From Selaginella moellendorffii (Eukaryota > Plantae > Lycopodiophyta): DNA of 64,000 nt. Numbering within the stretch: the first letter of the stretch is position 1; every line of letters begins with the position of its first letter. Under the pieces are notes generated by a model, which saw nothing but the letters and a program-made list of their open reading frames with translations, was not told where the DNA came from and ran no database searches. Location: positions 153,525 to 217,524 of the forward strand of contig NW_003314421.1 of the NCBI RefSeq assembly GCF_000143415.4, written 5' to 3'. Made by a program: the position numbers and the translations under genes. Shown here piece after piece: positions 1 through 64,000 of this stretch.

Positions 1-589
1 AAGCGGGGGGGGGGACATTGGGTTTCTTTTAGGGGAAAAAAATGGAGGCCAACAAAAAGAGTTTTGGGCCCCAAGGGGGGGGGGGCAAGGGGCCCAGCCC
101 CAAAAGTAAAGCCTTTTTAGGAAAAGGGAGAGTTACCCCGGAAGAAAGAAACAAAAAGAGTTCTGGGGCCAGAACACCAACGGTCCCATTCAAGTTCGGG
201 AAGACCAAGGGTTTTTCAAGGGGGGAGCTCCCCCCCAGGTTTTCCCCCCCCCCCCCCCCCCCCGAGACAAACAGTTTGTGAAATAGAGCTGTATGTCAGT
301 GGCACAAACCCTCCCAAGTTCCTAGGGGAGTGGATTGACAACAGAGTCAGATATGCCCCACTGGCAATCTTGATCACGCCAGGACAAGACATAGGCCAGA
401 CCCTAGAAGAAATACTGGCCTACAACTTTAACTGGAATCCACAATGGTTCTCGATCCAAGAAGATCATTTTATGGAGCAGGCACGTTCAGGTTCTGAGGA
501 ATGGTGAGAATCCCATTTGCATGGCCACTCCGTCCAATGGCACCATATCATTAGGTGGAGAGACAGTGTCTTAGCAGCGCCTAAGGATT

Positions 590-3500
590 CTACAATGGTT
601 AACATCAATGTGAGAACGTGGAACATGAGGGGTCTAAGAAGGAGAGATCATCAGCAAATAATAAGAGAACGAAATTTAGACAATACCATAGACAAGTAGA
701 AAGAGTGACTCAATGTTTTGACTTCTTGTGTGTGCAAGAGCATAGAATCTCAAGTGTGGACCTGGTTTATAAGTTGACCAAGGGAAAATATTTCTGGAAT
801 CCAGCAGTTTCACGAAGTGGTAGTAGTAAAAGGTTCATAGGAATCCCTAGTTGAAGATCATGCAATACTGGTACCGAGTAGAGTGTTTAAGATCGGGGAT
901 ATGTTAGTGGGGCTCCTGAATGTGTATGCGCCACCAGGGAGCTCTTCCGAAAGGGCAGACTTTTGGAATGAGTTAGTATGCCGACTACCTGCACAACCTT
1001 TGACATGGATGGTCATTGGAGATTTCAACTTTATGGAAGAAGAGCTAGACAAAGAAGGGGGAGAAATGAGAGAAAAGAGAAGAGCAATGTGGGCATAATT
1101 AGTGCTTGCGCTGGGGCTTGAAGATACATACAACATCCCTAGTTTTGTGCAACACCGGCCAAGGTACATATGGCAAGGACACCAGCAACAGGGAATCCAA
1201 CGAAGACTGGATTGGTTTTATGCCTGAGCTATATCAGAATAGTGGAAAATTGGACATAGCCACAGGATATAGAGATTTCTTAGACTACAACTCTGTATCA
1301 TTGACTCTGCCCATCTTAAAAAGGTGGGGAACAAAGAGGCTGCTGCCAATATCAAGAAAAAACTTAGAGGACAGGGATCTCAATGGACACATAAAAGAGA
1401 AGTGGAATCAGCAAGGGGAAGGGGATTTGCACCAGTTCATGATAAAGATAGCCAATGAGATACCAAAAAAAACATAGAGCAAGTGAAGAAAACTCTTCCA
1501 CAAAGTGGAAGCAATAAGAAGGAATATCGAAGCTATCAAGAGACTGATCAAGCTTAGCTTGCTAGATGCAACATTGAGAACTCAGTTAGCAAAGACAAAA
1601 GATCAACTTTTCACCCTAGAAGCAGAAAAGATGGAGGCATTCATAAGGCTGGGGCACCTCAAATGGATGAGCACGGGACAGTGGCCTCCAGGAGAAATCA
1701 ATGGAATAATTGTGCTCATCCCAAAAACAGGGGGAGATGCATCTCTGATCAAGAATTAGAGACTGATCTTGATGCTGAACATGCTTTACAAGATCGTAGC
1801 TAAGGCTTTAGCCAAGAGATTGCAACTGATACTGCCAGAAACGATACATGACACACAGAATGGATTTGTGGAAGGAAGACAGTTGGTAGACAATATATTG
1901 ATAGTGCTACTCACACAAGAACAAGTAAAGGACCAAGGACTAAAGATGGCAATAATACTTTTGGATTATAAGAAAGCCTATGATAGAGTGGATTGGGAAT
2001 TCCTGCAAACTATGATGAGGAGAATTGGCATTCTAGACAAGTTCATAAGATGGACAGCCACCTTATATCAAGGCGCATCAAGCAAAGTTACAATAAATGG
2101 GATAGTGGGGAACATGATCAAGTTAAAACGGTCAGTAAGACAAGGGTGTCCTCTAGCCTCTTTTTTGTTCTTTTCATGGTAGATGCACTAGCACATTATC
2201 TAGCAAGATTGGATGGGCCGGAGGGGTTGGTTTTGCCTGGGTGTAGAGACTCGCTACAAGACATGGTAGTGATAGCAGAAAAGCTGTTGAAATCTAGTGC
2301 CTTTGCTGATGATATGGGAATAATTGCATCAGGCTCCCTGGAAAACATGAGCAAAGTCAAGGAGGACTTAGACTTTTTCAACCTGGCAATGGGCTCAAAA
2401 ATAAACTGGGGAAAATTAGTGGGAATATAGTTGCCAAATTCAGACCTACCAAGCTGGGGGGAGGAGTGGGATTTTAAGTGGCTAAAACAAGGGGAAACAA
2501 CAAGATACTTAGGTTTCCAAGTGGGCCGGGACTATGACCCTCTCCCATAGAATCAAAAAGCAGTTGACAAGCTTAGAGATCAATTGAAATTCTGGGCATC
2601 ACGAAAGCTGTCCTTCTCGGCAAGATGTGTAGTGGCGAACAATATCGTGCTAGGGGCAATATAGTTTTTGGCAGCAGCATAGAATTTAGACAAGAAAATG
2701 CTAAAAGACATGAACAAGCTAATCAGGACATACATATGGAAGGGACAAGCGACAATCTCAAGAGGAGGGGCAAAGGTTGGATGGAGCTTGGTCGCAAGAG
2801 CGAAGTAGGATGGGGGGATAAACATAATTGATATAGAAGAACAATGCAAGGCTCTGCTATTCAAGATCTTTCATTGAATGAATATGCCTGAAAACCAGCC
2901 ATGGAAACTCCTACTACGTCACCAACTGCTAAAAGTCATCCTCGATAGACTAGAACACACAAGGCAGAATTGGGGAAAAGATGAAAGGTAGCTCTTCACT
3001 AATTGCATCTTAAAAATGACAAGACCAAATACATTCTCAGGGAAATTATTCAAGCTATGGAAAGAATTCAAAGGGAAGGTAGAAAAAAGAAAACTAGCAA
3101 ATAGCTATGAGTTGGATTGATAAACAAATATTCCTCAACAAACTATTCCAATGTAAGGGGAAATGCTTGGGAGAAATAAGAGACAGAGGAATAGACAAAG
3201 TATGTAGGGACCTGTACAGTGCCGGGATGAGAACATATGCAGAGGTTGACTCGATGCTGAAAGTGGGGGAAATGGAAAGAAACAGAGACATGCTAAAAGC
3301 CTTTTATGGCATGGAAATCTTGGCTCACCAGTTAAAAAAATTTGAAACAGCTTTTGAAGACGCATGAGAGTACTGCAAGCAAAGCATGGGGGAAGTCAAA
3401 GAAATGACACCAGTGTGGTGGACAGCCAATGGAAAGGTGATATATACGGCAACTCAAGATCAGACCAAGTGCGTTGTGTTCGATGTTGGGGTGGCCGGTT

Positions 3501-4405
3501 AACTGGTACCATACAAAGTACCCAAGGAAAGTATAAGACCGGACATGTCAAGAGTAGAGCCAATACGGGTAATAAGGATGGATAAGTAAACAGCATTGAT
3601 AGACCCGACAATAATGGAAGGTTTTGTAGCCAAGTTGTATTGGTTTAGGCAACAAAAATTAAGCAATTTGGTCTAGGATCCAATGGAATGAAATTGGCAG
3701 GGTAAAAAGAAGGAAGAATTCTTTGCATATGAGACAAGATTGGGATGAAGACTCATTTGGCCAAGTAGTGACTCGCTATTGGTATCAAGAATGAAATGAG
3801 CTAACATACAAGACATGATACAGCAGGTCCATAGCTTTGGGCAAATCCAAAGTAGCTTATCCATATGGTGGGAGTCTCGCCAAAACCAAGTGGGAGGCAA
3901 GGTTTGGGGACTATGTCTAGCATGTGATCACTCTGGGGGGGGCTTCAGAAATCACCTGTTTAGGGTTTAGGGTGTCCCCCACACCAAGTGCCACACTAGG
4001 GTCTGTTGACTATTGTTACTGGATTTGCATGATGGAGCGTAGAGCACACTATCTTGGTCCATATAATGAATTGTCTGGAAAGCTTCAATAAGGAAGGCTC
4101 TTGGGTATCCATGTGCATGGAGACAAGTATAGAAAAGCTTGCGAATTGCACATAAGCTCTCAGGGTTACTCTCTCAAAAGAGGTAATGCTGAAGTTCAGC
4201 ACGAATAAAAGCAATCTTTTGGTGTTGAGGATATGTTGAGTTCCATGGAAGATACTGGTATGCATTTAGTGGCTTTTGAAAGGGCATTTCTCAAAGCATG
4301 GGCCTTTGAAAAAATGGATGTAAGCTCTATTTCGTTAAAGTGGGAATTGTCATTATCCCACTTGTAAAATAAGGTTTCCAAACCTTTATATAGTATATAA
4401 ATATA
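590..4405 (+). mobile_element. Degraded L1-clade LINE ORF2 (endonuclease, RT, C-terminal region)
   Basis: EN motifs TWNMRGL, LCVQEH, NVYAP, IGDFN; RT motifs LDYKKAYDRVDW, VRQGCPLA, AFADD, YLG; many stops and frameshifts; AT-rich 3' end near 4370-4410. Confidence 0.9.
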
Positions 4406-4763
4406 ACAAAATTCAACTGCATTGAGGCACATGCCATTTTATTTTAAACAAGGAAATGTCTACTCAATCACTTCTCCTCCCCCTGCCACTGCTTCACCTC
4501 TCTCTTCTCCTTGTCATCGTCGTCCAATTTCTTTCCATCCTTTTAATATTGGCTCAGTTGCTCCGAGTCTAGGTGGAGCCCAAGTCCCCATTCAATCTTT
4601 ACTTTCCCTTTATTAATAAAACAACTTCGTAGACTTCCAATAACATGCTGTAACACTTCTAGTATAATGCAAATCCTCTCAAAGAATTGTCTTTTAATAT
4701 TAATACAATGGCATGGAACCCCATGCCATAATAAGTTACATTTTTAAATAAATACATGCCATC

Positions 4764-5626
4764 TCAGACTGTTATTTTTTGCCTCCAACGCCTATACAAT
4801 AATCTTGGAATTTCATCACTCTCCACACTATCAGGATTTAAACCCAATAGAAATGCCATCTCTTCTCTAATACATCCACGCTCACGTTCAGTGGTCGAAG
4901 AACCCATCCGGTTGAGCAGATTATGGAGATGCGGATAGTGCTTGGCTAGACAATATACATGCCATAAATGATGACTGGTGTCTGTCCGATCAAATGGCTT
5001 CTGATATACCGTTCCATCTGCCATTTGGTTGATTTCTGCAGCCACCTCCTGGACTGGCCGGTTCTCTATCACCATCGCTTCAAGCCGTTTTGCAAGGTCC
5101 CCCAGAACATACGGTTTCTTCTCCCTAGTTTCCATACTGCAAGAGATGGGGTGCACTGCATATGTGTGCGTGTTCACTGCAATTTTAATCGGCGAGTCAT
5201 CGATGATGAGGATTTCACTTGACCTAGCAGTCCGGTTCATCACTACAGCCTCTGGCTTGACGAAGATGGGCTTGCTACCCCTCACATGGACCATAGTCAA
5301 GCAATCCTCCTGCGTTAGGAGAAAGTCAAATGGTAATATTACTCGCGTCTGATCGTGCATCATCTGTAGCAACGTTAATGCATTGTGGCGCATCATGGAT
5401 GTCCAAACTCCCAATTGCAAATTGAACCCGGCCCTCTGTTTTAAGTGTCGCATGGTCATTATTAGATCCCGCAGTTTCTCCCGTGTGATTAATGTGAATC
5501 TGTCTCTTTTGACCAACTTGCGACCGCAGGCTTTGGAGGGTGCAGTGACATTCGAGGACGAGCCACGCTCATGGGAGAAAAGGACACCGTTCAGATCAAA
5601 AACGATACAGTACTTTCGCCGTGACT
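4764..5626 (-). other. FCP1-homology (NIF/HAD) phosphatase domain exon
   Basis: CIVFDLNGVL (motif I variant), VWTSM (II), FVK (III), LIIDDSPIK (IV). Confidence 0.85.
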
Positions 5627-8600
5627 CTGAAATGAAATGCGTCAGCATAAAAAATGGTATAAGTCAATTTTACCATCTACAATATTAGCGAATGGTGCTC
5701 CCGATGGTTGTTCAGAGGGTTTTGGTCGAGGAAACGTGAAGGGCGGAAATACTCTCCTCTGCAATGTGGGGTCAATCGCATCCGATGGCGTGTGGGCACA
5801 TGCCATTTCAGCTGTAGACTCTGGTACAACTGGCTCAACAGTGGCATGGGGTGGTTCCGATGGCGTGTGATCACACGCCATTTCAGCTGGTGCCTCCGTT
5901 GGCAAAGTGGACATGACCGAACAGGCAGCAGGGGCAGTGTAGGGTGGTTCCAACGGCGCGTAGTCAGACGATTGGGCACACGTTGAGTCCGTTGGAAATG
6001 AGGATACGACCGGCTCGGCGGCTGGGGCGGCCTCATGCGGGTCCAATGGCGCCTGGTCACCGTCAGTTGGATACGTGGACAAGATTGACTCAGTGGTATG
6101 GGCAGCATCAAGTGGAGCGTGGTCAGCTTGCTTGGTGTTGATATGGATAGTAGCCTCCACCAGCTCTGATGACTCTTGCAGGCAAGTAGAGTCCACTGGC
6201 GGATCCATATGCATGTCCAAATATCTCCCTTCGATTGAGATGGTATCCTCCCTACTGGCTACTAAAAACAAACTCATTAGCACATTGAATCGACTATACT
6301 GTACTTACCATCAAGTGCTATTTGGCGCACTGCTGATTCTGAAGGATTGGACATACGTTTCGACCCTTGCTTGGCACTATCCTTCCTCGACACTAAAGGC
6401 TAGAGTTTGTATCTTAATTCAACTGAATAATCTCTACTTACCATTTCTTCTGCGACCTACATGGACAATGTTAGAAATGGTAAAAGGTTAGGAATGGATG
6501 TACTATTATTTACCTGATGGTTTGTCTTGTATGACCTTCCTCCGCTGCTCTTTGGCCACCTCAGGCTGGCCATCGTCGTCATCATCGTCATCGTCGTTAT
6601 TGTGATCGTCACCATTGTGAGGACCATCCAAGTCCTCTTCGTCCTCCTCTTCTTCGTCCTCCTCTTCTTCGTCCTCCTCTTCTTTGTCCTCCTCTTCATC
6701 CTTCTGCTCTTCCTGCTCATTATCTTTCTCTGGCTCCTCATCCCCCTCCTGCATTTCTTCCATAGGCTGCTCAGGCTGGATGGCTTGTTTTTCCAGGACC
6801 ATCTTGGGAAAATCATCTGGCCGAGTCTCCATCTCAAAATACAAGACATCCATAGCCTGTTTTAGTGCTTGACCTAGGACCGTATCCTCACCCGACTGTC
6901 TTAACATGGTTTCTGCACATTCTTGCACCCTTTGAAGACGACGAGATGAGAAAAACGTGGCCCTGACTTGAAAAGCATCCCTCATCCATTGTACCTCTCC
7001 ATTGAGATTGGGGAAGGGGAGTCCGCCATAGGAATCTGAGTCAGAAGGTGGTGACTGGCTCCTTTCACTCAGCCCTTGATCTGCAATGAATGGCATGAGC
7101 ACATACGCCATAACCGCGAGGCATTACCTATCATCTTTTCGTTGCCCTTCTTCCTTTTCGAATCAAACGCCTCTGATCCCGACGACTGTCCAACGTGCTT
7201 TCGCTTTTTATGACCACTGTCAGTTTGAGCTTGGCTGGTGCTTGCCTGTTTTGCCTTTGAAGAAGTGTCTCCTGCAAGGAATGGCATGAGACCACACGCC
7301 ATTGCAAATATAATTTGTACCTCCTTTTTTCCTATTGCTTGTCTGTTTGTCCTTCTTCGACGCGCCACCAGTGCGCTTTTCAGTCCTCGTGTCTGAATAT
7401 TCACAACGATCTATAATCAAAATGGCGTGAGGCCTCACGTGACCTTACCTTGTGCAGGTTGTGAGCTCGGCCTAACATCAGTAGCTGTTAACGCCGTTTC
7501 AGCATCTGGGGGTGGCCACGCTCCTGCATACAGAGCTTGTGAGATAACATTTAAACTTAAAGTGCGTACTCACCAGGTTCGTAGAGAAGATACTGTTTTT
7601 CTTTGGCAACTGTAATTATATGCTCCATTGAAGTCACCTCTTCAATGGAGTTTGTCACCGCAACACACGGGACACCCTTGAGTAGTGCGGCTCGAAAGAA
7701 TAGTCCGCCGCAGTTGTACTCGACAACGCATTTGCCCTTGGAGTCACCCGCTATTGCGTTGAAGACCCAGCTGAGCATTTCCCATGCTGCACCTGGAGCT
7801 TTCTTTGGATTCAAAAGCTCCATAGCCGTCTTCAGTTCCTCAGGCACGGGTAAATTGACCTCCCTCAGATCAATTCGATTGGCCTTGTCGAACGAAGCTG
7901 GGAAGTCACTCCAGTCCCACTCTGCTGCAGGACCAATAACAAGGGCGAGTGTGAAGATGCGGACATTCGTCGGTATCTTCTTCTTAGCCATTATACCATG
8001 GATCTCCTGCATCTCCTTGCCTTTCAACCGAGCCTTCACCTCGTTCAAGGCCTTCCAGAACTTGTGATAGGATTCGGAGTCGTAGATCATATAGTGGACT
8101 GAAGATTCCACCTCCGCAAGTCCCACCATTAAGTCAATGATGGAGCTGACTTCGTCTACATGAGTGATCTCCTCGTTTGTGAAGTCCATCACACAAAAGA
8201 TGTTCTTGACCTGCTCATCTCCGCGGGAAACGATGCTCCTCCACCTTTGATCCTCATCCGAATTCACGTATACCCGGTAAGGTTCTTGATAGGCCTCTGC
8301 TGCGGGGTCGAGCTGTTTCTGAAGCCGGCGGTCGACATCCCTCTTAATGAAATTTGGATACTGATCCAACTTCTCAGCTTTACTTTTCGTGGCATCCCGC
8401 AGCAGATCGATGAACTTGGGGGCCCCCTTCACGTAGTCGTCGATGTCTTCATTTGACAAGTCCAGCTCTTCACCACGTAGAAGAGCATTAGCCACTGTCA
8501 GAAGGTCGTCGTCGTCTAGAGACCGCGAGAAACGCAAGGCGTTGAGCTTCAAATCATTGGGCTTCCGGCCGTCCTCCACACCCATTGAGTTTAGCAACTC

Positions 8601-10201
8601 CCCGTCATGGTACTTCCTCAGCACATCTACCCATTTGTCAAAAACAACTTTTGTCGCGAGTAGAATGTTATGGATGCTGAGTGTGTCATTGACCCCCAGT
8701 GTTTTCGAGAGAAGACTCGAGAATTCCTGCAATGGAAATGGCGTGAGGCCACATGCTATGCCACATGCAACGAGGCTTACCTGCCAGGCGCTAGTTGCTA
8801 GTGCATGTCCTTGTCCTGGTTTTTGTGGCTTCTTCAGTTAAACCCAGAGCTTCCGTGTTCGTGCCAATGTCTCGTGCAGACCCGATTTGTAGCACGTTTC
8901 TTGCTTGACATTCTGCGCGTGGGAGATGTATATGATAGATCGGAGGGGCGAGTTGCCTTTTATCAGGCGGACAACTCTTGTCTTGAAGACTTTCTTCACC
9001 TCCTCGCCCACCATAATATCCACAACTATCTCTTGCATCGCCAAGCTAGAATGCTGCCCGGAGACGGCATAGAACCGGATGTTCTGATCGTCCAACACCT
9101 TCCTATTGATCAAGTCTAGAAACCTCGTCTCGCCCTTCATTGTTCGGTAGTAGGGGATCACGTCTGCGATGTCGGGTGTTACTGGACTTGCCAGCATCTT
9201 CTGCTTCAGTTTCTCCACCCACTCATCAGATACTAGCCTGTGGTTGTATTTGCTTTGGATCTCGATACGGCTCACGTCGATTGTATATACTTTGTTGGAA
9301 TAGTAACAAGTACTATTATCTGCGACGATTTTTGCTGCCTCTTCTTGCTCTTTCTGCTCTTTGCGGCTCTTCTTTTTGGTGGGTGTAGTGTTCGAACCCG
9401 AGGCAATGGCATCACCGAGTAGCTTCTTTTTTGGAGCAGCAGAGTCGGACGTCGGCTTGAGCTTGACCACCCTTTTCTGCTTCGGGGTAGTTTCCAGATC
9501 GACCCCCTTCCCCTTCGCTTCGCAAACTGGAGGCACTCTCAACGGCTCAATGTTGGAATATAGTTTTTGAACATCGCCGTAGGTGAGGTCCGTGGATTCC
9601 ATGTGATCTTCATAGACCCGCAGCGTCTTTGAAATTGTGGGCCTCCTGGACAACCTCTCCCTAGCTCCCTCTAGGAATTCCTGATAGCCGCTGCCCCCCT
9701 CCGGGAAGCCGCTAGGATGTGCAAGGTGGATCTTGAAGGCGGACGCTGTCTCTACCACAAGTGCCAGTCCATATTCTTGCATGGAACTGCATGGAGTGTC
9801 TGTCACTTGGATGAGGATCCCCATGCATTCTTTTCTCCCACCATCTGTGTTGTACAGCATCAGATCCTCGCCTTCCATCCCGAAAGTCCAACTGGTGAGC
9901 TCCTCCCCCTTCTCTGCATCCACATTGACAGTGGCTGGAAGAAGAACGCAATTCCTCGCCTGTTCAGAAATGCACAACAATTAGAGCTGACAGATGAAAA
10001 GCTAGCAGCTGGAAATAACGTGAGGCCACACGCCATTCACCACTGCATCAGATGTCTTGAGGCTGCATCCTAAGATGGCGTGATGCTACACGCCATCTGT
10101 AACCGGACTGCACTCGAGAGCCCAATCGGTGCATGCCAATGTTGCTACTGAATGGCATGTGGCCTCATGCCATTTTCTACTTGGCCTAAAAGACTTACCA
10201 T
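4764..10201 (-). CDS. Multi-exon ~1,580-codon gene: ParB-like domain, degenerate N6/N4-MTase-like fold, basic/acidic low-complexity linker, Pro-rich repeats, C-terminal FCP1/NIF HAD phosphatase; one in-frame TAA at 8838-8840
   Basis: Manually spliced exons (minus): ATG 10201-10199 (tentative), 9959-8781, 8726-7574, 7523-7449, 7392-7321, 7271-7128, 7080-6514, 6456-6442, 6392-6309, 6261-5674, 5626-4764. All junctions are GT-AG and phase-compatible; internal introns 47-57 nt. Motifs FYAVSGQHS (ParB-like), VVEYNCGG..RAALLKG (MTase motif-I-like), VFDLNGVL/WTS/FVK/IIDDS (HAD). Confidence 0.75.
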
Positions 10202-10404
10202 TTGAAGCCGAATGGAGGCCGTGACAATCGAGGCCGGACTCGCTGGCGAATGTGCACTGTGTGTGCAGCGGATCGTAGCAGCAAGGCTACTCTGCCACTT
10301 ACAGTTGGAGAGTGGCGCTGAAATCTCCCGGGACGCCAAGTGGGCTGCGTGTGGGTGGCGGAGTGGGCGGCGGAGTTGGCGGCGAAGTTACAAACTGGGT
10401 GTGT

Positions 10405-10635
10405 CTTGAAGTGGACGCCGATGCACACGAGCGCGATGCGAGCGCGAGTGTGATGCAAGCGCGAGTGGACGCCGATGCACACGAGAAACCTGTAGAGAAG
10501 GCGCGAATGTGAGCGTGATCGCGAGTGGGAGCGCGATGCGAGCGCGAGTGTGATGCGAGCGCGGGCGCGAGTGTAGCGCGAGTGTGCGAGCGCGAGTACG
10601 AAGCAAAATGCAAAATCTAACCTCACACGCGCGAA
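10405..10635. repeat. CpG-rich short tandem repeats upstream of the minus-strand gene
   Basis: Iterated GCGAGCGCGAGTGTGAT units and two copies of GTGGACGCCGATGCACACGAG. Confidence 0.7.
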
Positions 10636-10942
10636 ATGTCACAACGGTTGGTAATCCCGCCACGTCATCATTCCTCGGACTTGGGCGCCACCATTAATTT
10701 CTGGATTTCCGCGCGCATGCAAGCACGCAAAATCCAAAAGAAATCCGCAACGTCATCATTCCTCGGACTGCATGCACGCGAAATCCAAAAGAAAGATCAT
10801 GATTGGGATATCATTTAATACCCTCGCTATATTTATACCATGCATGATTGGATATTCCAAAGCATCTTGTATTTCCAAAAATGGCAGATGTTCAGCTAAA
10901 TAAAGAAATTCTATCTGTTTCTATTTTTCTCTCAAATCAATA

Positions 10943-12300
10943 TTATAGCGTGTGGGCTCATGCAATTTTGAACCAAAGAAACCCAAAAAACGTTGGACCC
11001 AAAATAATTTGAAAAAACCCAAAAAACCCTTAATATTTTAAACCCAAAAATCCAGGCGTCCTGTGGCGTTATTCCTTGAATGGCGTGTGGGCGCATGCCA
11101 TTTTCAGGGCCAAATACTGAATGGAGAAAAATTCCCTTTCAGTGCAAATGCTGCAAGAGGCAGATGCCGAGCACAAAGGACTATAACTACCTCACATGAC
11201 ACAGATAAACTTTTCTCTATTTGGCAAAGATAAACTTTATAGCGTGTGGGCTCATGCAATTTTGAACCCAAAAAATGCACCAAAAAATTCTCGGCGTCAT
11301 CTGGCGTTATCTCTTGAATGGCGTGGGGCCGCATGCCATTTTCAGGGGCACATAGGAGTATATTCCTAGAATATTCTGACACGCGCGAGATTTTTTTGAG
11401 TTTTCTGGAGATCCAACCGTTAGATCGCAACTATATTTTACAGAATGGTATACAATGTCTTTCTTGATGACTCTGCAAAGAAGCATCTCGATCGGACACC
11501 ACATGAGACCACACGAGCCTTACAATGTTTCAGGGGCATTTGCCATAGATCCGACTGTTATTTTTCTCCAAGATTTTACAGTTTGGTGTGCATTGACCTT
11601 TCCATCGACACTGCAAAGGGACATCACAATCAGATGCGGGATCACAAGAAACTAACTTCACTAACTCTGGTTTCACCAAGATCTACGTAAGGAGTTATGA
11701 AATGAAAGGACCCTCTCTATTAAAATGTGTTTATAGTCCTAGGGGCATTGTGACATATCAAAGGATTTTGCATCAAGTTCTGTATTTGCATGTTTATCAA
11801 GCTACTGAATTGCTAAACCCTAAACCCTAAACATGTGGCAAATGCTGCGTGAAGAAAGATGCCCTTTCTGGGCAAATGCTGTAAGAGGCAGATGCCGAGC
11901 AGATGTATCTCAGGCTAGCGAAGGGGACAAACGAAAGCTAGCTATAAACATGACGGGATGCAAATAGATTACTAGGCTGGTCCTACGAAAATCAAAAACC
12001 ATAATTGAAAACATTGAAAATGCAAAAAGAAAGGTTTATAATATTTTTGAATTTTAAGCAACCAAAGGAATGTAAGTAGGGCATGTGTTTGTAAGTTTAA
12101 AAATGCCTCAACCACTTAAATTCCCAAGTAAATAAAGCTGTTTCTATTTTTGGTACAGGTAAACTTTATAGCGTGTGGGCTCATGCAATTTTGAACCCAA
12201 AAATGCACCAAAAAATGCTCGACTAGCATTATTCTTTGAATGGCGTGTGGCCTTATGTCGAGCATTATTCTTTGAATGGCGTGTGGCCTTATATTGCCAT
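10943..12300 (+). repeat. Three imperfect direct repeats (~10943, ~11237, ~12166), each carrying palindrome pairs
   Basis: TATAGCGTGTGGGCTCATGCAATTTTGAACC...TTGAATGGCGTG occurs three times. Confidence 0.85.
11813..11831 (+). repeat. Short interstitial plant telomeric repeat (CCCTAAA)n
   Basis: ctaaaccctaaaccctaaa. Confidence 0.7.
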
Positions 12301-12553
12301 AAATGGACGTACACACACAGCATAATTATTCCTTTACACGGCGAATAATCTTGGCGCGGATCGCTGACATGGCATGGCAAAGTTCGAATCACTGACATGG
12401 CACAGCTGGATCGAGGCAAGGACATGATGTGACAAAGTTCAACCTCCGACAGCAAAGTCTAGAAGCTACTCAATTTGAAATTTGTCAGAGGAATCATAAG
12501 ATCTGGTTTGTCAGAGGATTTGATGTGACGTTCAAATTATCCGCGGCTGGGAA

Positions 12554-12653
12554 NNNNNNNNNNNNNNNNNNNNNNNNNNNNNNNNNNNNNNNNNNNNNNN
12601 NNNNNNNNNNNNNNNNNNNNNNNNNNNNNNNNNNNNNNNNNNNNNNNNNNNNN
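12554..12653. other. Assembly gap (100 N)
   Basis: Run of N. Confidence 1.
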
Positions 12654-12676
12654 AGAGAGTTGCAAAAGGGACCCTT

Positions 12677-15600
12677 GTGTCTATGGATCGAAACTTTGTT
12701 ATACACTGTCAAAGGCTTAGGGAAGGCAATGCTGCTGTATCAGTAGAGACTGTCTTCGATGGGAATGTGGTCGCTATTGAACGAGGAGAGATGGTCGTCG
12801 GGGTAAATGTTGTTGTTGCCTTGAAAAATCTTCAGAAGAAAGCAGATGTTGGGGACAGCGCAAGTGCGACGCATGTTCCCTCCGTGGATCTTAAGAACCG
12901 TGCTACATGGATTCAAGCAAAGGTGTTTCTAAACAACCCCGAGGGGGAGGTGGTAGCTGAGGGCTTAGCCACAGTTGTCGATCCAAGAGATGCGGTTGCT
13001 AATCAAGAATTGGGCTGGGATGATATTGGAGTTGCGATTTTAAAGGTTGTTGACACAGAAGAAAACAATCTGACTATTAGAAGCATTGTGCGGTGGAAAT
13101 TGAGGCACTTAGTGTTTGAGAATGTGAAGGATTCACAATCAAACACCACTACAACTGATGACAGAACATCTCTTCATGGGAAAAGAAAGTACACCTTCCT
13201 AAAGCACAGCCAAAGGGATCTGAGCAACGAACCGAAAAGGCAGAAAATGGCGATGGAGGTTCGAATGGTCTTAACAGTTGCTTGTTGCAAGAGGAGGTGC
13301 TGTCAACATGCTGATTGGGATGCTATTGAAGAGGAGAGAGCAAGATACAAGACATTGTCCTGGAAGGCAGCTCGCAATTTTGTGTATGAGGCATTACGGT
13401 CATTTGTTGATGCTTCAGAACATCAGGTGGGGGGCATGGTCTTCCAGAGGGGTTTGGTCTGCATGAAGGCATGGAGAATCATTTATGGAGTCCCTCGAAG
13501 CACATTCTACAGAATCAAAACTGAGTTCGAAGAACAAAGGGTTCAACAGGCAGTCCATGAGAACAACGGTACGCGCAAAACCAGGGGTCATGTTGTATAT
13601 GGAGAGGCAATCTTCAAGAGGTTTGTCGAGACATATAGCGAGCAGCAACCACATAAAACCCGCCTCTTGGAAGATGGAACACGAGACACCCAACGAGTTC
13701 TCCCTTCCATGTATACCAAGGGGGCCATATTGGAAGATGTGAATCGGGAACTCCAGAGTAATGGCTACAGGAAGCTGAGTCAATCTAGATTTAGTAGATT
13801 GTGGAGCAACAGGTTCAGGGATGTGAGTATAGGAAAGTACTCCAGCTTTTCAAAGTGTGACGAGTGCACTGCTATCAAAATGGCTTTGTCGAAGAATTCT
13901 TGCAGCGCTCAAGAGCGAGAGACGTTGGTTAGAAGGCGGCTCGACCACAACATCGAGCAGAGAAGCTGCAGGACTGCATATTATCATAACAGGATTCTCT
14001 CCATGGAGAGACCTGACTCTTACCTCTGCATCATCCACGACAAAATGGACCAGAAAAAGACGTGCTTACCTCGACTCAATCCTGCCCCCAAGGCAATCTC
14101 TTCATCCATACAGCTGCCTGTGTCTCTGTTTGGCATAATTGCTCATGGGCATGGTGCCCAGAACTATGGGAACTTCTTTGTACCTCTATGGGGTGGCGGG
14201 GGTGCAAACATGATGATTGCGTCCCTAGCAAAACACTTAAGGTCTCTGCAAAGTGCGCAGACTGAGCTGAACGGCCAACCCTTGCATAAGGCCCTTGTCG
14301 ATCGAACCCCATACAGGGTTCAGCTGGAGGAGGAGCAAAGGCTTGCAGTATCGCGTGGGGCCCCATGCCATCCCAGTGAATATGTTGGCCGTCAGATTGT
14401 AGGGTTATCACGTGAGGCCTCATGCCATTCCGACGAGGCTGGTCGCCCGGTGAATGCACAGCCTCATCCAAACGAAGCAGAATCTCAAGGAAGTTCTTGC
14501 GGCCGATGTGGCCTTCCACCCCATCTTCTGCTCCAAACAGACAATGCTGGCAGTGAGAACAAAAACATGTACGTCTTCACGTACTTGGCGATGCTTGTTG
14601 CCAAAGGCATATTTGAAACGGTTACACTTGGCTTTCTCATGGTTGGGCACACTCATGAAGACGTGGATGCCATGTTCAGTCACCTGGCAGAGTCCCTCCG
14701 GCGATCCAATGTCCTCACCCTCCCACAACTCTACGATGAATTCCAAAATTGCATCAAAGGCAATGTTGAAGCTGCACTTCTGACAGAGGTTCCAGACTTT
14801 AAGGGGTTTGTAAGAAGCTACATCAGGGACGGATCTGAAATGCTGATTGGCCACTCCAAGCCTCTTCAGTTTCATTTCAGCATGCGTGACGGTGCTCTAG
14901 TGATGAGGTACAAGATGAGAGAATGGGACACAGTGTGGCTGCCAGTGGACGGCATTGAACTCTTCAAGAGAGATCCCATAATTGGGGAACCTATGATTCC
15001 TCAGGGTTCCCCACGGCCGATGCACCCGGATGGACTCAAAGACCAGGAAAGTATAGTGGCCGGGATTAGACAGCATATTGCCTTCTGGAAGAGGGGGTTG
15101 GTGTTTGGTGGAGAATCCTATTTTCAGAGGTGCAAGCCTTTGCTCGAATACTGGGAGAAGATTATATCTGCTATCCAAAATGGGCCGGTTGTATATGAAG
15201 AATTGGAAGAGTCCTTTTGGCCAGAACCCAGAGCACCAGATAGTAGCGGAACAATGTCCTCTGGAAATGCAGTGACAGATAACGATGTTGAGGATCATTA
15301 TTGTGGGCCGAGGAACAAGAAGCCGGATTCAGCATTCAATCCAGTACAGGTCTGCAAAGGAATGGTCGTGCTTGTCAGACCCAGTAATAAAAAACAAATG
15401 ATATGGGTGGGGCGCTGCATCACTGATGCAGAGGAGGACGCGGAAACTAACTCCTTCAATGTAACTGTGGAGTGGTTCAAGCCAAGTTCCGGATATACGA
15501 AGGATTGCCTAGAAAAGAGATGGGTGCTGAATCCAAGGGATCCCAGCATGAGCATATCGGTGGATAATGTTGTGCATGGTTGGATGCGGAAGCAGAGTGC

Positions 15601-15749
15601 CACCATCACCTTGCCAGACCATGCAAGAGATGCAGCAAGAGCATTCATAACCCGGGTTCAAGGTGAGATTCATTAATATTCCTTTACTAAGTTTCTAATG
15701 TATTTTATTTCAAGGTGAACAATCCGAATCTGAATCAGAGGAGGCGTGA
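12677..15749 (+). CDS. DDE/RNase H-fold transposase (DUF7869/Sola-like motif set) with N-terminal Tnp1/En/Spm-like domain and C-terminal beta-rich (SH3/Tudor-like) domain; 5' end may lie in the gap
   Basis: Uninterrupted 999-aa ORF; CCKRRC, FSKCDEC, IIHDKMDQKKTCLP, LQTDNAGSENKN, FLMVGHTHEDVDAMFS; N-terminal VVAEG..VDP..V...ELG; probable last intron 15663-15714 and exon GEQSESESEEA* ending 15749. Confidence 0.85.
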
Positions 15750-16361
15750 TGGCATGTGGCCTTACGCCATTCCTAGGTGAGATGATACAAATAACAAGTA
15801 TAAATTCTTAGTTGTTCTAGCAAATCTTACTTAAAGTTCAAGGTGAACAAGCCGAATATGAATTCATCGGATTGTTATAACAAATTGCGAGGTGATGGCA
15901 TGAGGCGATACGCCATTTGAGAGTGGTAGCCATTCTTATATGAGGTGAGTGAAATATTTATTAGAAATACCTCATTCAATTGTGCACTTCTAAGTCTTGG
16001 TCCACTCAGTACTGTTTGCATGTTTTTATTTTAATTCTTTCTCTAAAATGTTATTTAGCATGTGGCTTCATGCCATTGCTCTCCACAATCATGCATTGAA
16101 TTTTTCTATCCTTGCATAATACTTCTCCATATATATAGCATGTGCGCACATGTGATATGGTTCATTAGGCCTGATATAGTGTGTGAGGTAAAACAAAGAT
16201 GATGTGACATATGCATTTACCAATCATACGTGCATAAATCTAATAATATGGGCCACACGCCATATTATTAGATTTATTGTACCATCATTCCCTTGCAGCG
16301 TGTGTGTTGGTTTCCTTTCATAACACAACGAACTCCATATTTTAGGGTGAAGAGCGTTCTC

Positions 16362-16619
16362 ATGGCAAGCACAAAATCTGTAAGTGAGGCAGAAAAGGAG
16401 ACGGAGAAGGAGATAGGTGAAGATGTAGAATATATAAGTCTTCCAAACTCCCCGTACTATACTCCAGGTGATCATTTTTCTGAACAAACGGCAACATTAA
16501 CAACTATCGAGAACGCCCCAGTAACGTCAGAGACAACAATCCAAAGCAAAACAACTGACCCGGAGAAGGATGATAGTACCGCTGAGAGTACCAAAAAGGA
16601 GGTGTCCACTAGCACTTAG
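16362..16619 (+). CDS. Small Ser/Thr/Glu-rich ORF or additional exon inside the element
   Basis: Open frame MASTKSVSEAEK...STST* preceded by an acceptor-like TTTTAG at ~16346 and followed by a palindrome. Confidence 0.3.
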   Translation: MASTKSVSEAEKETEKEIGEDVEYISLPNSPYYTPGDHFSEQTATLTTIENAPVTSETTIQSKTTDPEKDDSTAESTKKEVSTST

Positions 16620-17109
16620 GCTTATAATGGCGTGTGCCCTCATGCCATTTACTTGATCACCAAATACCTTTTTCCCTTTGCACTAGTATATTTTAATACC
16701 GGTCTGAGAAATAGAATGGCATGTGCCCTCAGGCCTTTTACTAAATCACCTTTGAAAGAAATGCAAGCCTCTATGTCGTAAAAAAAAGGTACTAGAGAAA
16801 TTCCTTAATAATATGAATGTTATTTAGTTTCATGAAAATACACTAAGGGTCAAATGAGTTAAACGACTTCTCCAGACTAGCAATGCCTCTTGCTACACCT
16901 TCACAATTAGATTCGTTAGAAAAAGATAACATTGAATAATATCTAAATGTTCTCACCATTAAGTTATATGTCTAGCTAATAGGAATGACGTTCATCTTGG
17001 AAAGCTCACCACACGCTCAATGAACAAACAAATAATGTGTGTGTGCATGCCATCGCTCTTCTTTAGCTTCAGATTCGGCTTGTTCACCTTGACAATGAGA
17101 TTTATTATA

Positions 17110-18140
17110 CAACCAGATGGACTCAGTCTGGACACAAAGTCACCGCGCTAGTCACCATGCCCCAGATATGTCTAGCCCCTGGACAAAAAACATATAATTT
17201 CACGTCATTTTCAAATACTTGAAAATTTGTACCTAGTCCCATTTTACTGAATAAATCCCACTTTAACGAAATAGAGCTTATGTCTAGAATATCCATAGAT
17301 TCAAATGAGATCACTGAGGTGATCTTTATAGAATTGCAGAGGCTTCCATAGCCAGCCAACCGGCATTCCAAGCTCTCTTTTGATCCATCCCAAATTCTGA
17401 CACCATCGTCAATATATCTCTTAAGATATATTGGCCAATTAGAAGAGATGGCCTTAAACTCGTCCTCGAGGGAACAAAGAAAAAGGCAAGCATACACTAC
17501 AGCAAAGTTGGACCCATAGCAGTGCCTTGGATTTGAAGGAAATAACTCCCATCGAACTCAACATAATTGTGTTCAAGGATGAGTCCTACAGCAGCCATGA
17601 CAAAGCGTACTTGCATTGAATCTCCAAAATTTCTATATATGAATTTATGGAGGCAATAGAGCCCTTCACGTGTGGGAATGCTCGGGTAGAGCAACTCCAC
17701 ATCAAAAGTGAAGAGGAGGCAGTCTTTTGGGAGCTGCTTTTTATGAAGATCATGAAGGAGGGTGTGGGAGTCCATAAGAAAGGTTTCCTGTTGGAGGAGA
17801 ATGCCAAAAAGTTGGCGGTGAAGCCATTTTGCAAGTGGCTTCCAAATGTAGCCAACATAGCTAGCAATTTGTCTCCCATGAATTGGCTGCTTGTGTATTT
17901 TTGGAAGAAAATACAACAAGCAAGCCTTACATGGAGGTGAGGGCAAAGTGGCGAGGTACTTGGCTGTGTTCTTGTCGAGCCACAAGCAAGATTTTTCTCA
18001 TTCTTGTCAAGCCACAAACAAGATTTATACGAGATAAATCTTGCTTGTGGCTTCAGAAGTGGGCTCTTCGGAAACTCAATTTGCAAGCGAGAGCATCACC
18101 CTTCCCAGCATTTGGTACCACCTCTCAATCTAGCCTGTCC
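17110..18140 (-). mobile_element. Penelope-like element (PLE) reverse transcriptase fragment
   Basis: DKN motif, LYFLPKIHK..GRQI, LFTFDVELLYPSIP, NYVEFDG..LQIQGTAMG, YLKRYIDD; frameshifted. Confidence 0.85.
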
Positions 18141-18159
18141 TTGAACACACTCTCAAAAA

Positions 18160-20228
18160 GGTATGCATAATGGTTCGTAAGTATGTGTGGCAAGGCACGC
18201 TTGTCGCAAGAAGGATCATGGCCAAGGTTGCGTGGCAATCCACAGCATGTCCACGAGTCCTAGGAGGATTGGGAGTTATCAATCTGAGTAATATGGCAAA
18301 GGCACTACTATACAAAATCCTCCTTATGGGCCTTCAACTAGGTAACTAACCTTGGAAACTCATGTTCAGGCAAAGCTTGTTAGCAATCTAGCCTAGGCAC
18401 AACATTGCAAGACCATGGGAGGAGGATCCACATTGGCTTTTTGCTAAAGGGTTGAAGCAAGTAGTCAATGGCAACACGCTGGTTCAAGGGTTTCTCAAGT
18501 TATGGAGTGAGTTTCCAGTTAGTAGGGAAATCCCGGGGTGAGCGGAGGACTGGCTGAACCAGCCCCTATTCTTCAATGACCTCTTCAAAGTGGATGACAG
18601 GACGCTGGGCAAGGAAGACCACTACACAATCTGGAGAAAGTTGCATGGCGAAGGCTTCCGAACTCTCAAGCAACTGGTGGGAGTTCTAGACAAGGATAGG
18701 AGGAAGACTACAAGGTGTATGCAGGTCTTTAACCCAGGATGGTGGAGGAAAGTCCACCTTAATCTTCTTTGCATCATTAGAGTAGTGAGTGAGGTGAAGA
18801 AGGGGCAGTTTTGGCCTAGGTGACGTCTCAAAGCTGGAGACTTTGAGGTTTTGCAATGGGACGTGGAGCTGGACAGGGAACGAGCTAGCTTGGGGGCCTG
18901 GACATGGGTGTTTACAACCCCAACACCAGCTTGGGAGGATAGTGATGTGGAGGTGTGGTTCGTTGTGTCTCCCAAACAGAATGTTGGGTGTTCATTTCGG
19001 GTTATGAGAGGCGACATGCTACTGCCAACAGGACATGAACAGGTCATGCTGATGGTGACAGATGACAAAGTCAAGGGTAGGATTCGAGTAGTATGACAAA
19101 CTCTAAAGCAGTTGGTGGTGGTTCAATTGATGGCCACACTAGAGGGGGATGGCATTCTTCGATGGTGGCAATAGTAGCTCATCGAGGATTTGGATTGGGA
19201 CCCAATAGCATGGAAATGAGGAGCAAGGAGCTTCTTCTCATTTGAGGTCAAGAAAGCACAAGATGGTCTCTTGATCAGTAGGGAGGAGGCCCGAGGGGAG
19301 ATCCCCAAGCTCTAGAAGAAATGGATCGAGCAAAAAGTTGAAGCAAATTAGGTGGTGGACAACATGCTTGCGTTCTGGAAACTACTGGTACAGAAGAAAG
19401 TCAAGGCCACCTCTTGGTTGGTGGCTAATAACAGGCTGCAAGTAGGACAGTAGTTCTAGGGGGAAGCATGCTGATGATGCAAGGAGTGTGGCAAGCTATA
19501 GACAGCATGACATGCACTTTGGGAATGTGATGTGGCAAGAGAGGTATGGCGACAGATCCTCAAGGTGATGTAGGAATTAGGAGACATTCCGAAGTTCAAG
19601 GCTCAGAGCAGGGATATCCTCCACTGGTTTGAGGGTGCTAGAGGTCTAGCCATTGGTCCAGCTTGGAGGTGCATTCGCTATCACGGATGACATGGATGGA
19701 ACATGCGAGTCTAGTGGGATGCGATAGGGGCTAAAGTCAAGATGTTAGTTTGGGAGGTGATGGGCCATAAGTGCTGGTCCATCTGGAGAGGGACAAGAGT
19801 GCAAGCACTTTGGGAGGCACGAGCACACTGTCACTTTAATGGGAAACAAGTGAGGATATTGGTGATGGTGGAATCGTGGTGAAGACTCACTCTTGTAGCG
19901 GTGTGTCTTCATTATGCCATCCTGAAAGAGCGGGTGAAACCAAGGCATCTAGAGGAGTGGAGGTCCAGGTGGCTCCCATACCTTGGTAGAATGGTAGGTG
20001 GCGAGATTCGCTGGCAATGCCCCCCCCCCGGACTCTATTCTACACTCAGCTCGAGTGGGAGACTTGAACATTGACATGATTTGAATGTGATGACCACGTC
20101 CACTTCTGCTTCAACACTAGGTCCAGCTGTGACACAAGAGGATCACGTAGAGTAGCTCATTGAGAGGGCGGCACGTCTAGTTTTTGTATTAGTCCCATTG
20201 GGACATGGGGAATGTACATATACGTTTA
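18160..20228 (+). mobile_element. 5'-truncated, degraded L1 LINE (3' part), same family as 40203-47970
   Basis: Matches the ORF2 C-terminus (AKVAWQS, WLNQPLFFN) and 3' end GGGAATGTACATA.ACGTTT of the minus-strand copy. Confidence 0.85.
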
Positions 20229-63901: not shown

Positions 63902-64000
63902 GGCGGAACCCTAACCTAGGTACTCTGTTTTTTAGGGTTCTAGCCGTAGAATGGGACATTGTGCGAGGCGAGCTGCATTCGATGTGAGGTTGATAGAAAA

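Follow-up and report, generated by a model that had tools for sequence, protein, structure and literature searches.

What kind of gene joins ParB-like, methylase-like and FCP1-type phosphatase-like domains in the lycophyte Selaginella moellendorffii, and what might its product do? The original prediction, made on the 64,000-nucleotide stretch of DNA analysed here (the window), treated the gene as a free-standing chimera. Our analysis indicated that it is instead the second gene in a 13-kb Sola1-type DNA transposon with terminal inverted repeats (Table 1). Hereafter, we term it the accessory gene.

Table 1 Features of the element and its accessory gene (window coordinates)
Feature	Position	Strand	Remarks
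Whole Sola1-type DNA transposon	4322..17279	.	12,958 bp including 100-N gap 12554-12653; inverted ends, 4-bp duplication, frame-restoring empty site
Left terminal inverted repeat	4322..4348	+	First 24 nt perfect
Right terminal inverted repeat	17253..17279	-	Pairs with left end
Target-site duplication ATGT, left	4318..4321	+	4-nt direct flank
Target-site duplication ATGT, right	17280..17283	+	4-nt direct flank
Decayed, presumably Penelope-like reverse transcriptase (insertion target)	17284..17997	-	Extends left of 4318; in frame across joined empty site
Transposase	12656..15676	+	1,006 aa open after gap; DUF7869; invariant D462/D465, D629, D669/D671
Palindrome, 22 bp, 26 copies	4417..17052	.	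Consensus ATGGCRTGTGGCCACAYGCCAT; at most 3 mismatches; 22 non-coding, 7 in accessory-gene introns
3'-end piece of eukaryotic large-subunit rRNA	10266..10303	-	38 nt, upstream of accessory ATG; 35/38 identical to loci Rfam names LSU_rRNA_eukarya
Accessory gene, 11 exons	4764..10201	-	Exons 10201-10199, 9959-8781, 8726-7574, 7523-7449, 7392-7321, 7271-7128, 7080-6514, 6456-6442, 6392-6309, 6261-5674, 5626-4764
First intron	10198-9960	-	239 nt
Nine internal introns	8780-8727, 7573-7524, 7448-7393, 7320-7272, 7127-7081, 6513-6457, 6441-6393, 6308-6262, 5673-5627	-	GT-AG, 47-57 nt
Premature TAA	8838..8840	-	Codon 375, exon 2, 58 nt ahead of donor; Gln codon in other copies
ParB/sulfiredoxin-fold domain	8841..9359	-	Motif SGQHS; AlphaFold pLDDT 78; Foldseek; VIA
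Helical region after ParB domain	8470..8726	-	Possible DNA-binding helix-turn-helix; homologous in Selaginella, Riccia
N4/N6 DNA-methylase-like domain	7574..8300	-	No catalytic DPPY; VVEYNCGG at motif I
Exons 4-9	6309..7523	-	Basic Lys/Arg tracts, short predicted helical stretch, long Asp/Glu tract
Exon 10 Pro/Thr/Ala-rich linker	5674..6261	-	Two palindrome copies (5786, 5861) encode AEMAC-HTPS repeat
NIF/FCP1-type HAD phosphatase-like domain	5166..5612	-	PF03031 E 5.3e-6, 26.6 bits, cut-off 21.8

The accessory gene lies in a Sola1-type transposon

Comparison of the element ends indicated that the terminal inverted repeats match at 24/24 nt, and at 26/27 nt in all. Among the 47 perfect inverted pairs of at least 20 nt in the window, the element's pair was the only one with a 4-nt direct flank, and the duplicated ATGT fits the Sola1 target rule (AWWT/AWDT; PMC3845634). 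A contig of sequencing run X4 begins at 4321, its preceding 50 letters being unlike the window. When the element was removed and its flanks were joined, the reading frame of the target continued across the junction. This interrupted reverse transcriptase frame, which is presumably Penelope-like judging from its motifs, matched RVT_1 with an E of only 0.17 in a Pfam scan. Capture of a host gene together with its flanks was rejected, as the ends, the duplication and the palindromic motif span the whole unit. The CpG observed/expected ratio was 0.71 in the element versus 0.29-0.54 in five flanking stretches; youth alone may cause this high CpG content. The private differences of this copy (12/15 of C-to-T type, 7 at CG) correspond to methylation-type decay, and protection from silencing is therefore not absolute.

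The transposase and the accessory gene are arranged head to head. The Asp residues in the three acidic blocks of the transposase were invariant across 17 sequences and presumably supply the catalytic DDD triad; DUF7869 is associated with Sola transposases. Neither a ParB-, methylase- or NIF-like frame nor a cluster of the window palindrome was detected at the best 80 of 208 transposase loci, the closest of which span only 4-5.6 kb. Candidate inverted ends were also located in more distant relatives, which span only ~3-6 kb and showed no accessory-type gene; Sola1 transposases thus do not need such a gene in general. The 38-nt rRNA piece opens with a donor-like GTAAGT, and contigs of the sequencing runs have loose ends at this piece. 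An Rfam search of the element gave no match.

Exon chain and other copies of the accessory gene

The splicing model proposed originally proved sound at the level of signals: all nine short internal introns, including those flanking the 15-nt micro-exon, are GT-AG introns, and the open reading frames join in one frame with the expected 4740 nt plus ATG. In total, the gene has 11 exons, ten GT-AG introns and 4,743 nt. Its ten donors ranked 1-8, 10, and 12 among the 282 GT sites of the gene when scored with a donor matrix typed from recall; since the donors were chosen partly by consensus, this ranking is not fully independent support. All five exon indels between copies (156, 24, 12, 15, and net 3) were multiples of three, versus 3/7 in non-coding sequence. 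The position of intron 2, which lies between exons 2 and 3, is the same in the Selaginella and Riccia gene models. The joins of exons 4-11 are predicted from splice signals and indel frames. The weakest piece of the chain is the one-codon exon with the ATG; a 59-nt contig of run X20 (depth 4; RNA is a guess) links 10032 to the acceptor 9960 via a different donor. One DNA contig of run X8 covers 5224-10295. Three runs were guessed to be RNA. The contigs of X18 retain introns 1, 2, 6, and 10 and possibly derive from DNA, and X19 and X20 covered 6/30 and 4/30 bins, partly from a diverged copy. None of the three showed a join for the nine internal introns, which speaks neither for nor against splicing.

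The predicted protein of ~1,580 aa is not encoded by this copy, in which an in-frame TAA interrupts the chain. At the stop site, all six covering sequencing runs read G on the plus strand, i.e. a Gln codon (every one in X1, contig depth 51), X19 and X20 having no coverage there. The stop codon is therefore particular to this copy. Excision of the TAA by an intron was rejected, as it would need a poor GTTTAA donor and a Gln codon is all that distinguishes other copies at this site. Relative to those copies, the present one is missing 156 nt at 8470/8471 (seen in contigs of X8 and X4) as well as 24 nt at 6322/6323 (4/4 runs); where the 156 nt are missing, a Selaginella homologue carries 55 additional residues. 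Considering the Gln codon and the 52 + 8 extra codons of other copies, the family product would be ~1,640 aa, and intact copies likely yield it as one nuclear protein.

We consider it fairly probable that all exons are joined and that the NIF exon belongs to the same protein. Alternatively, a ParB-methylase protein (exons 1-3 plus some tail) might be produced, the NIF exon being made separately or unused and the long chain being a by-product of short introns. Such a division would agree with the Selaginella gene models, which end after the methylase domain, and with the comparatively weak donor of intron 9 (rank 8). It seems to us quite unlikely, as exon 11 contains no Met upstream of its DLNGVL motif, indels in exons 4, 9, and 10 preserve the frame, and Diphasiastrum gene model P0049 has the ParB half fused to a NIF domain. 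The NIF part of P0049 was weakly alike that of the window (24%, E 3e-5). The Riccia model ends earlier still, after the helical region.

Word-based protein searches turned up no relatives of exon 3 and, for the NIF exon, none that were longer; the latter is weak evidence according to the search tool itself. The exon-2 family was found in 0/60 candidates in viral contigs and 0/316 in metagenome contigs, and PDB sequence, NCBIfam, PHROGs, phage, and plasmid searches gave no matches. The scattered "hypothetical proteins" of Selaginella, Diphasiastrum, and Riccia can be explained as likely transposon cargo.

Domains of the encoded protein

Structure comparison and Pfam bore out the claimed order of ParB-like domain, methylase-like domain, basic/acidic tracts, repeats, and NIF/FCP1-type domain. 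The model of the ParB domain matched Noc in Foldseek (E 3.9e-4), and VIA aligned it with PadC (Z 9.7, rmsd 3.2, 99 aligned) and KorB (Z 8.9, rmsd 2.8, 94 aligned); judged by titles, the 12 top VIA rows were all ParB/Srx-superfamily proteins. The predicted structure therefore supports a ParB/Srx fold. The SGQHS motif could be aligned with AGERR (P 0.022) as well as with DGQHR (P 0.033). Both CTP-pocket arginines of box II (G-x-R-R) are replaced, and clamp-type spreading may accordingly not apply. In the model of the Selaginella protein, helices were predicted after the ParB domain at moderate confidence. For the Riccia homologue, five of seven Atlas rows were ParB_N clusters, two with HTH_ParB; those with both domains aligned to Riccia residues 183-474, below the bar for naming. 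A ParB profile gave no alignment over the helical region.

The methylase-like domain was recognized mainly through Selaginella homologue P0047 (26% identity), for which eight of ten Atlas structure rows were N4/N6 methylases aligning to PF01555. One of these reached the bar for naming, and two were from ParB_N + methylase fusion clusters. The structure predicted for the Selaginella protein was of low quality (pLDDT 46), and searches with it returned only weak methylase rows (2zif, probability 0.57; Trm11, Z 6.1, rmsd 2.5, 62 aligned). With a profile built from 13 N4/N6 methylases, neither the window protein nor the Selaginella protein received a HMMER score. An active N4-cytosine or N6-adenine methylase, marking palindromes or new insertions as Marchantia DN4MT1 or rotifer N4CMT would, could be proposed from the N4/N6 fold, which covers ~200 residues in the Selaginella homologue, from a weak profile match that is colinear (motif IV then motif I; P 0.086), and from the enzymes reported in Marchantia and rotifers. 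We regard it as very unlikely. The catalytic motif IV, [DNS]PP[YF], is absent from the window and Selaginella proteins, the strand aligned to it terminating in DLRR (Selaginella protein) or near DFTN (window protein), and EYNCGG or EYGCGG stands at the place of motif I instead of DPFxGSG. The domain is likely catalytically dead.

No Pfam match above the cut-off was obtained for the exon-7 frame. The Pro-rich repeats of the original prediction are present in exon 10, and part of them is the translation of two palindrome copies belonging to the element. The NIF domain reads DLNGVL instead of the catalytic DxDx[T/V] defined in PMC7281111, and that of P0049 reads DLDDIL. As the second Asp is missing, the proposed action on the Pol II CTD is unsupported beyond the family name.

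The altered catalytic motifs of all three enzyme-like domains would suit a passive cargo of captured gene pieces without a role for the element. So would the displayed coding differences segregating between copies, 11/13 of which were nonsynonymous; hence, purifying selection is not shown at that scale. This explanation is nevertheless highly improbable in our estimation, considering the in-frame indels, the intron position and domain order that liverwort and lycophyte homologues share despite ~25% identity, and the G, Q, and H of the ParB motif and the R, N, and R columns, which are invariant in 15 homologous sequences.

Palindrome, possible role and known systems

Of 25 palindrome matches in the window, 22 fell within the element, compared with 0.73 expected across the window. 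The 26 copies in the element were enriched in non-coding DNA (22/26, P 2e-6) and in introns (7, P 3e-4). We propose, at slightly less than even chances, that a phage ParB-methylase gave rise to the accessory protein and that the latter is a regulator targeting its own element, likely to counteract silencing. By analogy with ParB, KorB, and VirB, the ParB domain and the helices behind it would dimerise on the palindrome, a step we hold just as tentatively. Without catalysing a reaction, the dead methylase fold would hold DNA or methylated bases; the acidic tract would engage histones, and the weakened phosphatase would bind or slowly dephosphorylate a nuclear phosphoprotein. The net effect would favour the element, which would be transcribed or unsilenced, as VANC does for VANDAL.

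The palindrome is a predicted target of the accessory protein, and the transposase is an alternative binder. The palindromes may be transposase sites and the accessory protein, comparable to MURB of MuDR, a partner in transposition that serves to assemble the transpososome or to choose the target. The clustering of 15/26 palindromes towards the two ends and in the intergenic stretch agrees with this, as do the MURA-MURB contact (PMC12973397) and the finding that transposases can bind motifs inside an element and activate cognate copies (bioRxiv 10.64898/2026.08.24.746577). Nine palindromes, however, sit inside the accessory gene itself, well away from either end, and the distant ~3-6 kb relatives show no such gene; we therefore regard a transposition partner as rather unlikely.

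The self-targeting regulator could be part of a wider picture, which appears unlikely: a family of large Sola1 transposons in seed-free land plants would have taken up a phage ParB-methylase gene and turned it into a eukaryotic ParB/parS-like system, in which a nucleotide-gated clamp loads on intron and end palindromes, slides, and brings the dead methylase, the acidic histone-binding tract, and the phosphatase-like domain to bear against silencing, possibly with kinship to Starship DUF3723. If true, it would be the first ParB-type site-loading protein known to us in plants that is nuclear and spliced. We know of very few elements, with VANC and TnpA, for which escape of plant transposons from DNA methylation is understood. 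In the open literature searched, through listings and the openings of abstracts, no accessory genes were reported for the Sola1 superfamily and no description of this gene, element, or domain combination was found; proteins of this kind, or Sola clusters of plants, may be catalogued in supplements such as those of PMC4738411 and PMC12973397.

Sola1 DNA transposons were reportedly described by Bao et al. in 2009. This element resembles them in its terminal inverted repeats, 4-bp AWDT-type duplication, and DUF7869 transposase with three acidic blocks, but differs in its 13-kb length and second, intron-rich gene, the autonomous Sola1 elements in PMC3845634 being 1.5-2.8 kb. The domain architecture had not been recognized at first; its ParB + methylase half is, however, a known phage and bacterial fusion. 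ParB_N + N6_N4_Mtase fusions and ParB-terminase loci (PMC4738411) have the same arrangement, with a beta-order N4/N6 methylase fold behind the ParB fold, and the accessory protein likely descends from such a phage-type fusion. Unlike these, the accessory gene is eukaryotic and spliced, has lost the catalytic motif, adds the acidic tract and NIF domain, and resides on a DDD transposon. FCP1/SCP (NIF) phosphatases share the PF03031 match and, by eye, the first Asp, Thr/Ser, Lys, and DD pair in the expected order, whereas the accessory protein has DLNGV in place of DxDx[T/V].

The ParB, Noc, KorB, and VirB clamps likewise show a ParB/Srx fold followed by helices, and here candidate palindromic sites are present. 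KorB and VirB regulate genes on their own mobile element, as proposed for the accessory protein, and VirB is a ParB-family anti-silencer acting at a palindromic site (PMC10245682). The accessory protein differs in lacking the box II arginines (GQHS, nearer the DGQHR type) and ParA, and in being probably nuclear. DUF3723 Starship cargo gave the Atlas feature clusters nearest to the Riccia homologue (0.87, a lead only), a hint that it is possibly a ParB-fold relative. Both are conserved in large mobile elements (PMC9156397), but DUF3723 is fungal, belongs to tyrosine-recombinase Starship elements, and is linked by feature clusters rather than alignment. VANC of VANDAL (MULE) elements is also encoded by an accessory gene inside a plant DNA transposon, and it binds motifs in VANDAL introns, intergenic, and terminal regions (PMC5735166), where the palindrome is enriched here; both proteins contain repeats. 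The superfamily, the ParB/methylase/NIF domains, the 22-bp palindrome versus the 9-bp VANDAL motif, and the predicted status of any activity distinguish the present case, and Pfam scans named no VANC-related domain. Like VANDAL with VANC, this young, abundant element pairs a candidate protein, here built of bacterial or phage parts, with a candidate target motif, and this pairing is directly testable.

Exon chain of the accessory gene and its state in this copy

Splicing of the minus strand bore out the nine internal introns of 47–57 nt and the 15-nt exon of the original prediction: removal of ten GT-AG introns yielded 11 exons, 4,743 nt in a single frame. Their donors ranked 1–8, 10, and 12 among 282 GT sites, in a matrix ranking that is partly circular. 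The 1,580-aa product expected from this gene cannot be made by this copy, because an in-frame TAA occupies codon 375 in exon 2; a Gln codon was found there in all six sequencing runs covering the site. Since other copies carry 156 and 24 nt more, the family product is estimated to be about 1,640 aa.

Features of the window
Position	Strand	Feature
4322–4348, 17253–17279		inverted repeats bounding the element
4764–10201	−	accessory gene
6322/6323		extra 24 nt in other copies
8470/8471		extra 156 nt in other copies
8840–8838	−	TAA in exon 2
9960–10031		72-nt GT-AG intron removed in X20 contigs
10193		junction in X19 and X20 contigs
10266–10303	−	38-nt piece of large-subunit rRNA 3′ end
10388–10620		tandem repeats rich in GCGCGA
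12656–15676	+	transposase, 1,006-aa DUF7869 frame
15667–16620	+	splice-like signals; 115-aa open frame (16272–16619)
15710–15756, 17046–17092		47-nt inverted match
541–4250, 18100–20200	+	decayed LINE-type endonuclease/reverse transcriptase fragments (by eye)
23532, 57474		lone palindrome copies
20.7–21.1, 25.4–25.6, 27.0–27.8, 49.1–50.2, 59.9–60.2 kb		12-bp-unit arrays, GAGATGGAGTCC-like
42.3–43.0 kb		RVT_1 remnant
61928–63910	−	intact 660-aa frame

A search among 1.84 billion representatives gave 13 matches to the protein, 11 of them relatives, the named ones being from Selaginella moellendorffii, Riccia sorocarpa, and Diphasiastrum complanatum. The other two, P0042 and P0052, were rejected as repeat artefacts. 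At the place of intron 2, seven of 12 inspected unnamed or frame-called relatives stop within four residues past W-K-V and five continue into short tails; the Selaginella and Riccia gene models share the join of the window model (WQ|EF, DQ|F). We regard a split product as unlikely, and the whole exon chain is probably a single protein. The Selaginella homologue has 55 residues at a place where this copy lacks 52.

From 40 of 50 rows, 28 differences were classed, and 12 rows, mainly from runs X18–X20 (guessed to be RNA), were set aside. Of these 28, this copy alone carries 15, of which 12 were of the C-to-T type (seven at CG), indicating that this copy is methylated and decaying. All five counted exon indels were multiples of three, as were three of seven non-coding indels. 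The residue was changed by 11 of the 13 segregating coding differences listed, which counts against selection.

The rRNA piece lies about 65 nt ahead of the ATG in the sense of the accessory gene, starts with a donor-like GTAAGT, and is shared by other copies. Contigs of X19 and X20 represent a diverged copy joined after AG to sequence absent from the window, and the intron removed in X20 ends at 9960; these contigs are possibly chimeric transcripts coming from a neighbouring gene. The GCGCGA-rich repeats upstream vary in length among copies and are likely the promoter region. Past its stop codon, the transposase gene may continue in small 3′ exons, judging from the splice-like signals and the open frame there.

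Boundaries of the element and its palindromes

Among the 47 perfect inverted pairs of at least 20 nt in the window, only that of the element has a 4-nt direct flank, ATGT outside each repeat. When the element was taken out together with one ATGT, the flanks read through as one unbroken frame carrying reverse-transcriptase motifs, presumably Penelope-like. A contig from another run starts at 4321 with foreign sequence ahead of the element end. The DUF7869 frame stands head-to-head with the accessory gene and has 38 relatives, including Riccia, oyster, and amphioxus proteins; three blocks hold acidic residues that are invariant across 17 sequences. We provisionally file the element as Sola1-type; passages of PMC3845634 give a 4-bp AWWT/AWDT duplication as the Sola1 hallmark. 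In run X1, 30,088 short contigs covered 6.5 kb of the element, two thirds at 99% or higher, which points to a young and abundant family, depth not being a copy number. TTTAGGG-type repeats in the contigs, together with the liverwort and lycophyte origin of the named relatives, suggest a seed-free land plant as the host.

That the accessory gene is transposon cargo is practically certain; that it is passive cargo is very unlikely. It was seen in none of the best 80 of 208 transposase loci, the closest contigs being too short to tell, and candidate ends, where present in more distant relatives of the transposase, enclose about 3–6 kb. Another contig (L044:90–9746) holds a DUF7869-type transposase relative between very long, interrupted inverted repeats, about 9.7 kb overall.

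With up to two mismatches allowed, the window holds 25 copies of the palindrome TGGCRTG-N6-CAYGCCA, 22 of them within the element, where chance would give 0.73 in the whole window; at three mismatches, the counts are 39 and 26. The element copies yield a symmetric 22-bp consensus, and 22 of the 26 lie in non-coding DNA. Introns 1, 2, 4, 5, and 6 hold seven, a copy taking up nearly half of a 50-nt intron; two others encode the repeated peptide of exon 10, and two more lie in the transposase's variable insert. The lone copies outside may mark fragments or non-autonomous relatives.

Elsewhere, the LINE-type fragments lie on both sides of the element, and the 12-bp-unit arrays belong to a repeat family occurring several times in the window in both orientations. 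The 660-aa frame combines a coiled coil with a P-loop (GFPGAGKT), has only weak Pfam matches, and presumably resembles CRN-related NTPase proteins. A eukaryotic rRNA pattern was found in 28 contigs (L094–L121) filed under bacterial or archaeal genomes, and eukaryotic LSU rRNA in all five scanned, indicating contamination.

Domains of the accessory protein

The exon-2 domain model (pLDDT 78) structurally matched Noc, ParB, PadC, KorB, and sulfiredoxin. Its SGQHS motif aligns with AGERR of ParB and also with DGQHR; compared with ParB, the domain keeps the fold but not the CTP-pocket arginines described in passages of PMC10245682. Through the Selaginella homologue (26% identity), about 200 residues in the second half of exon 3 resembled N4/N6 DNA methylases in eight of ten Atlas structure rows, and two rows were ParB_N–methylase fusions from phages and bacteria. 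A methylase profile matched the sequence weakly (P 0.086), colinear across 188 columns. The two parts are very probably joined in one protein. DPPY was absent from the methylase-like domain when the window and Selaginella proteins were compared with methylase motifs, and an active methylase is improbable.

The last exon encodes a NIF domain reading DLNGVL; in SCP1, the second Asp helps catalysis (passages of PMC7281111). The Diphasiastrum gene model P0049 carries the ParB half and NIF in one chain but lacks the methylase part. This model, itself a prediction, is the sole outside support for the putative ParB–NIF fusion. As no more than a lead, the feature clusters nearest the Riccia homologue belong to fungal DUF3723 (0.87), which is a conserved cargo of Starship elements in passages of PMC9156397.

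Possible role and comparison with known systems

As the most likely reading, at just under even confidence, we infer that the accessory protein would recognise the element's palindromes and would promote element expression or shield the element from silencing, its binding, partner, and effect all being putative; the enzyme-like domains may serve mainly as binding modules. As the main alternative, the palindromes may belong to the transposase and the accessory protein may be a transposition partner, as MURB is; we consider this rather doubtful.

Accessory genes in plant DNA transposons and ParB–methylase fusions in phages are already known. The combination of ParB–methylase, NIF, and a dispersed palindrome in a Sola1-type element was not found among the openly accessible papers and abstracts searched, and the passages of PMC4738411 do not describe this protein family. 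According to them, ParB–terminase loci are one origin of methylases in eukaryotes, and DIRS1 elements carry methylase domains that are inactive. Palindromes are loading sites of ParB-family regulators in passages of PMC10245682, and the distribution of the element's palindromes is like that of the VANC motifs in VANDAL described in passages of PMC5735166.
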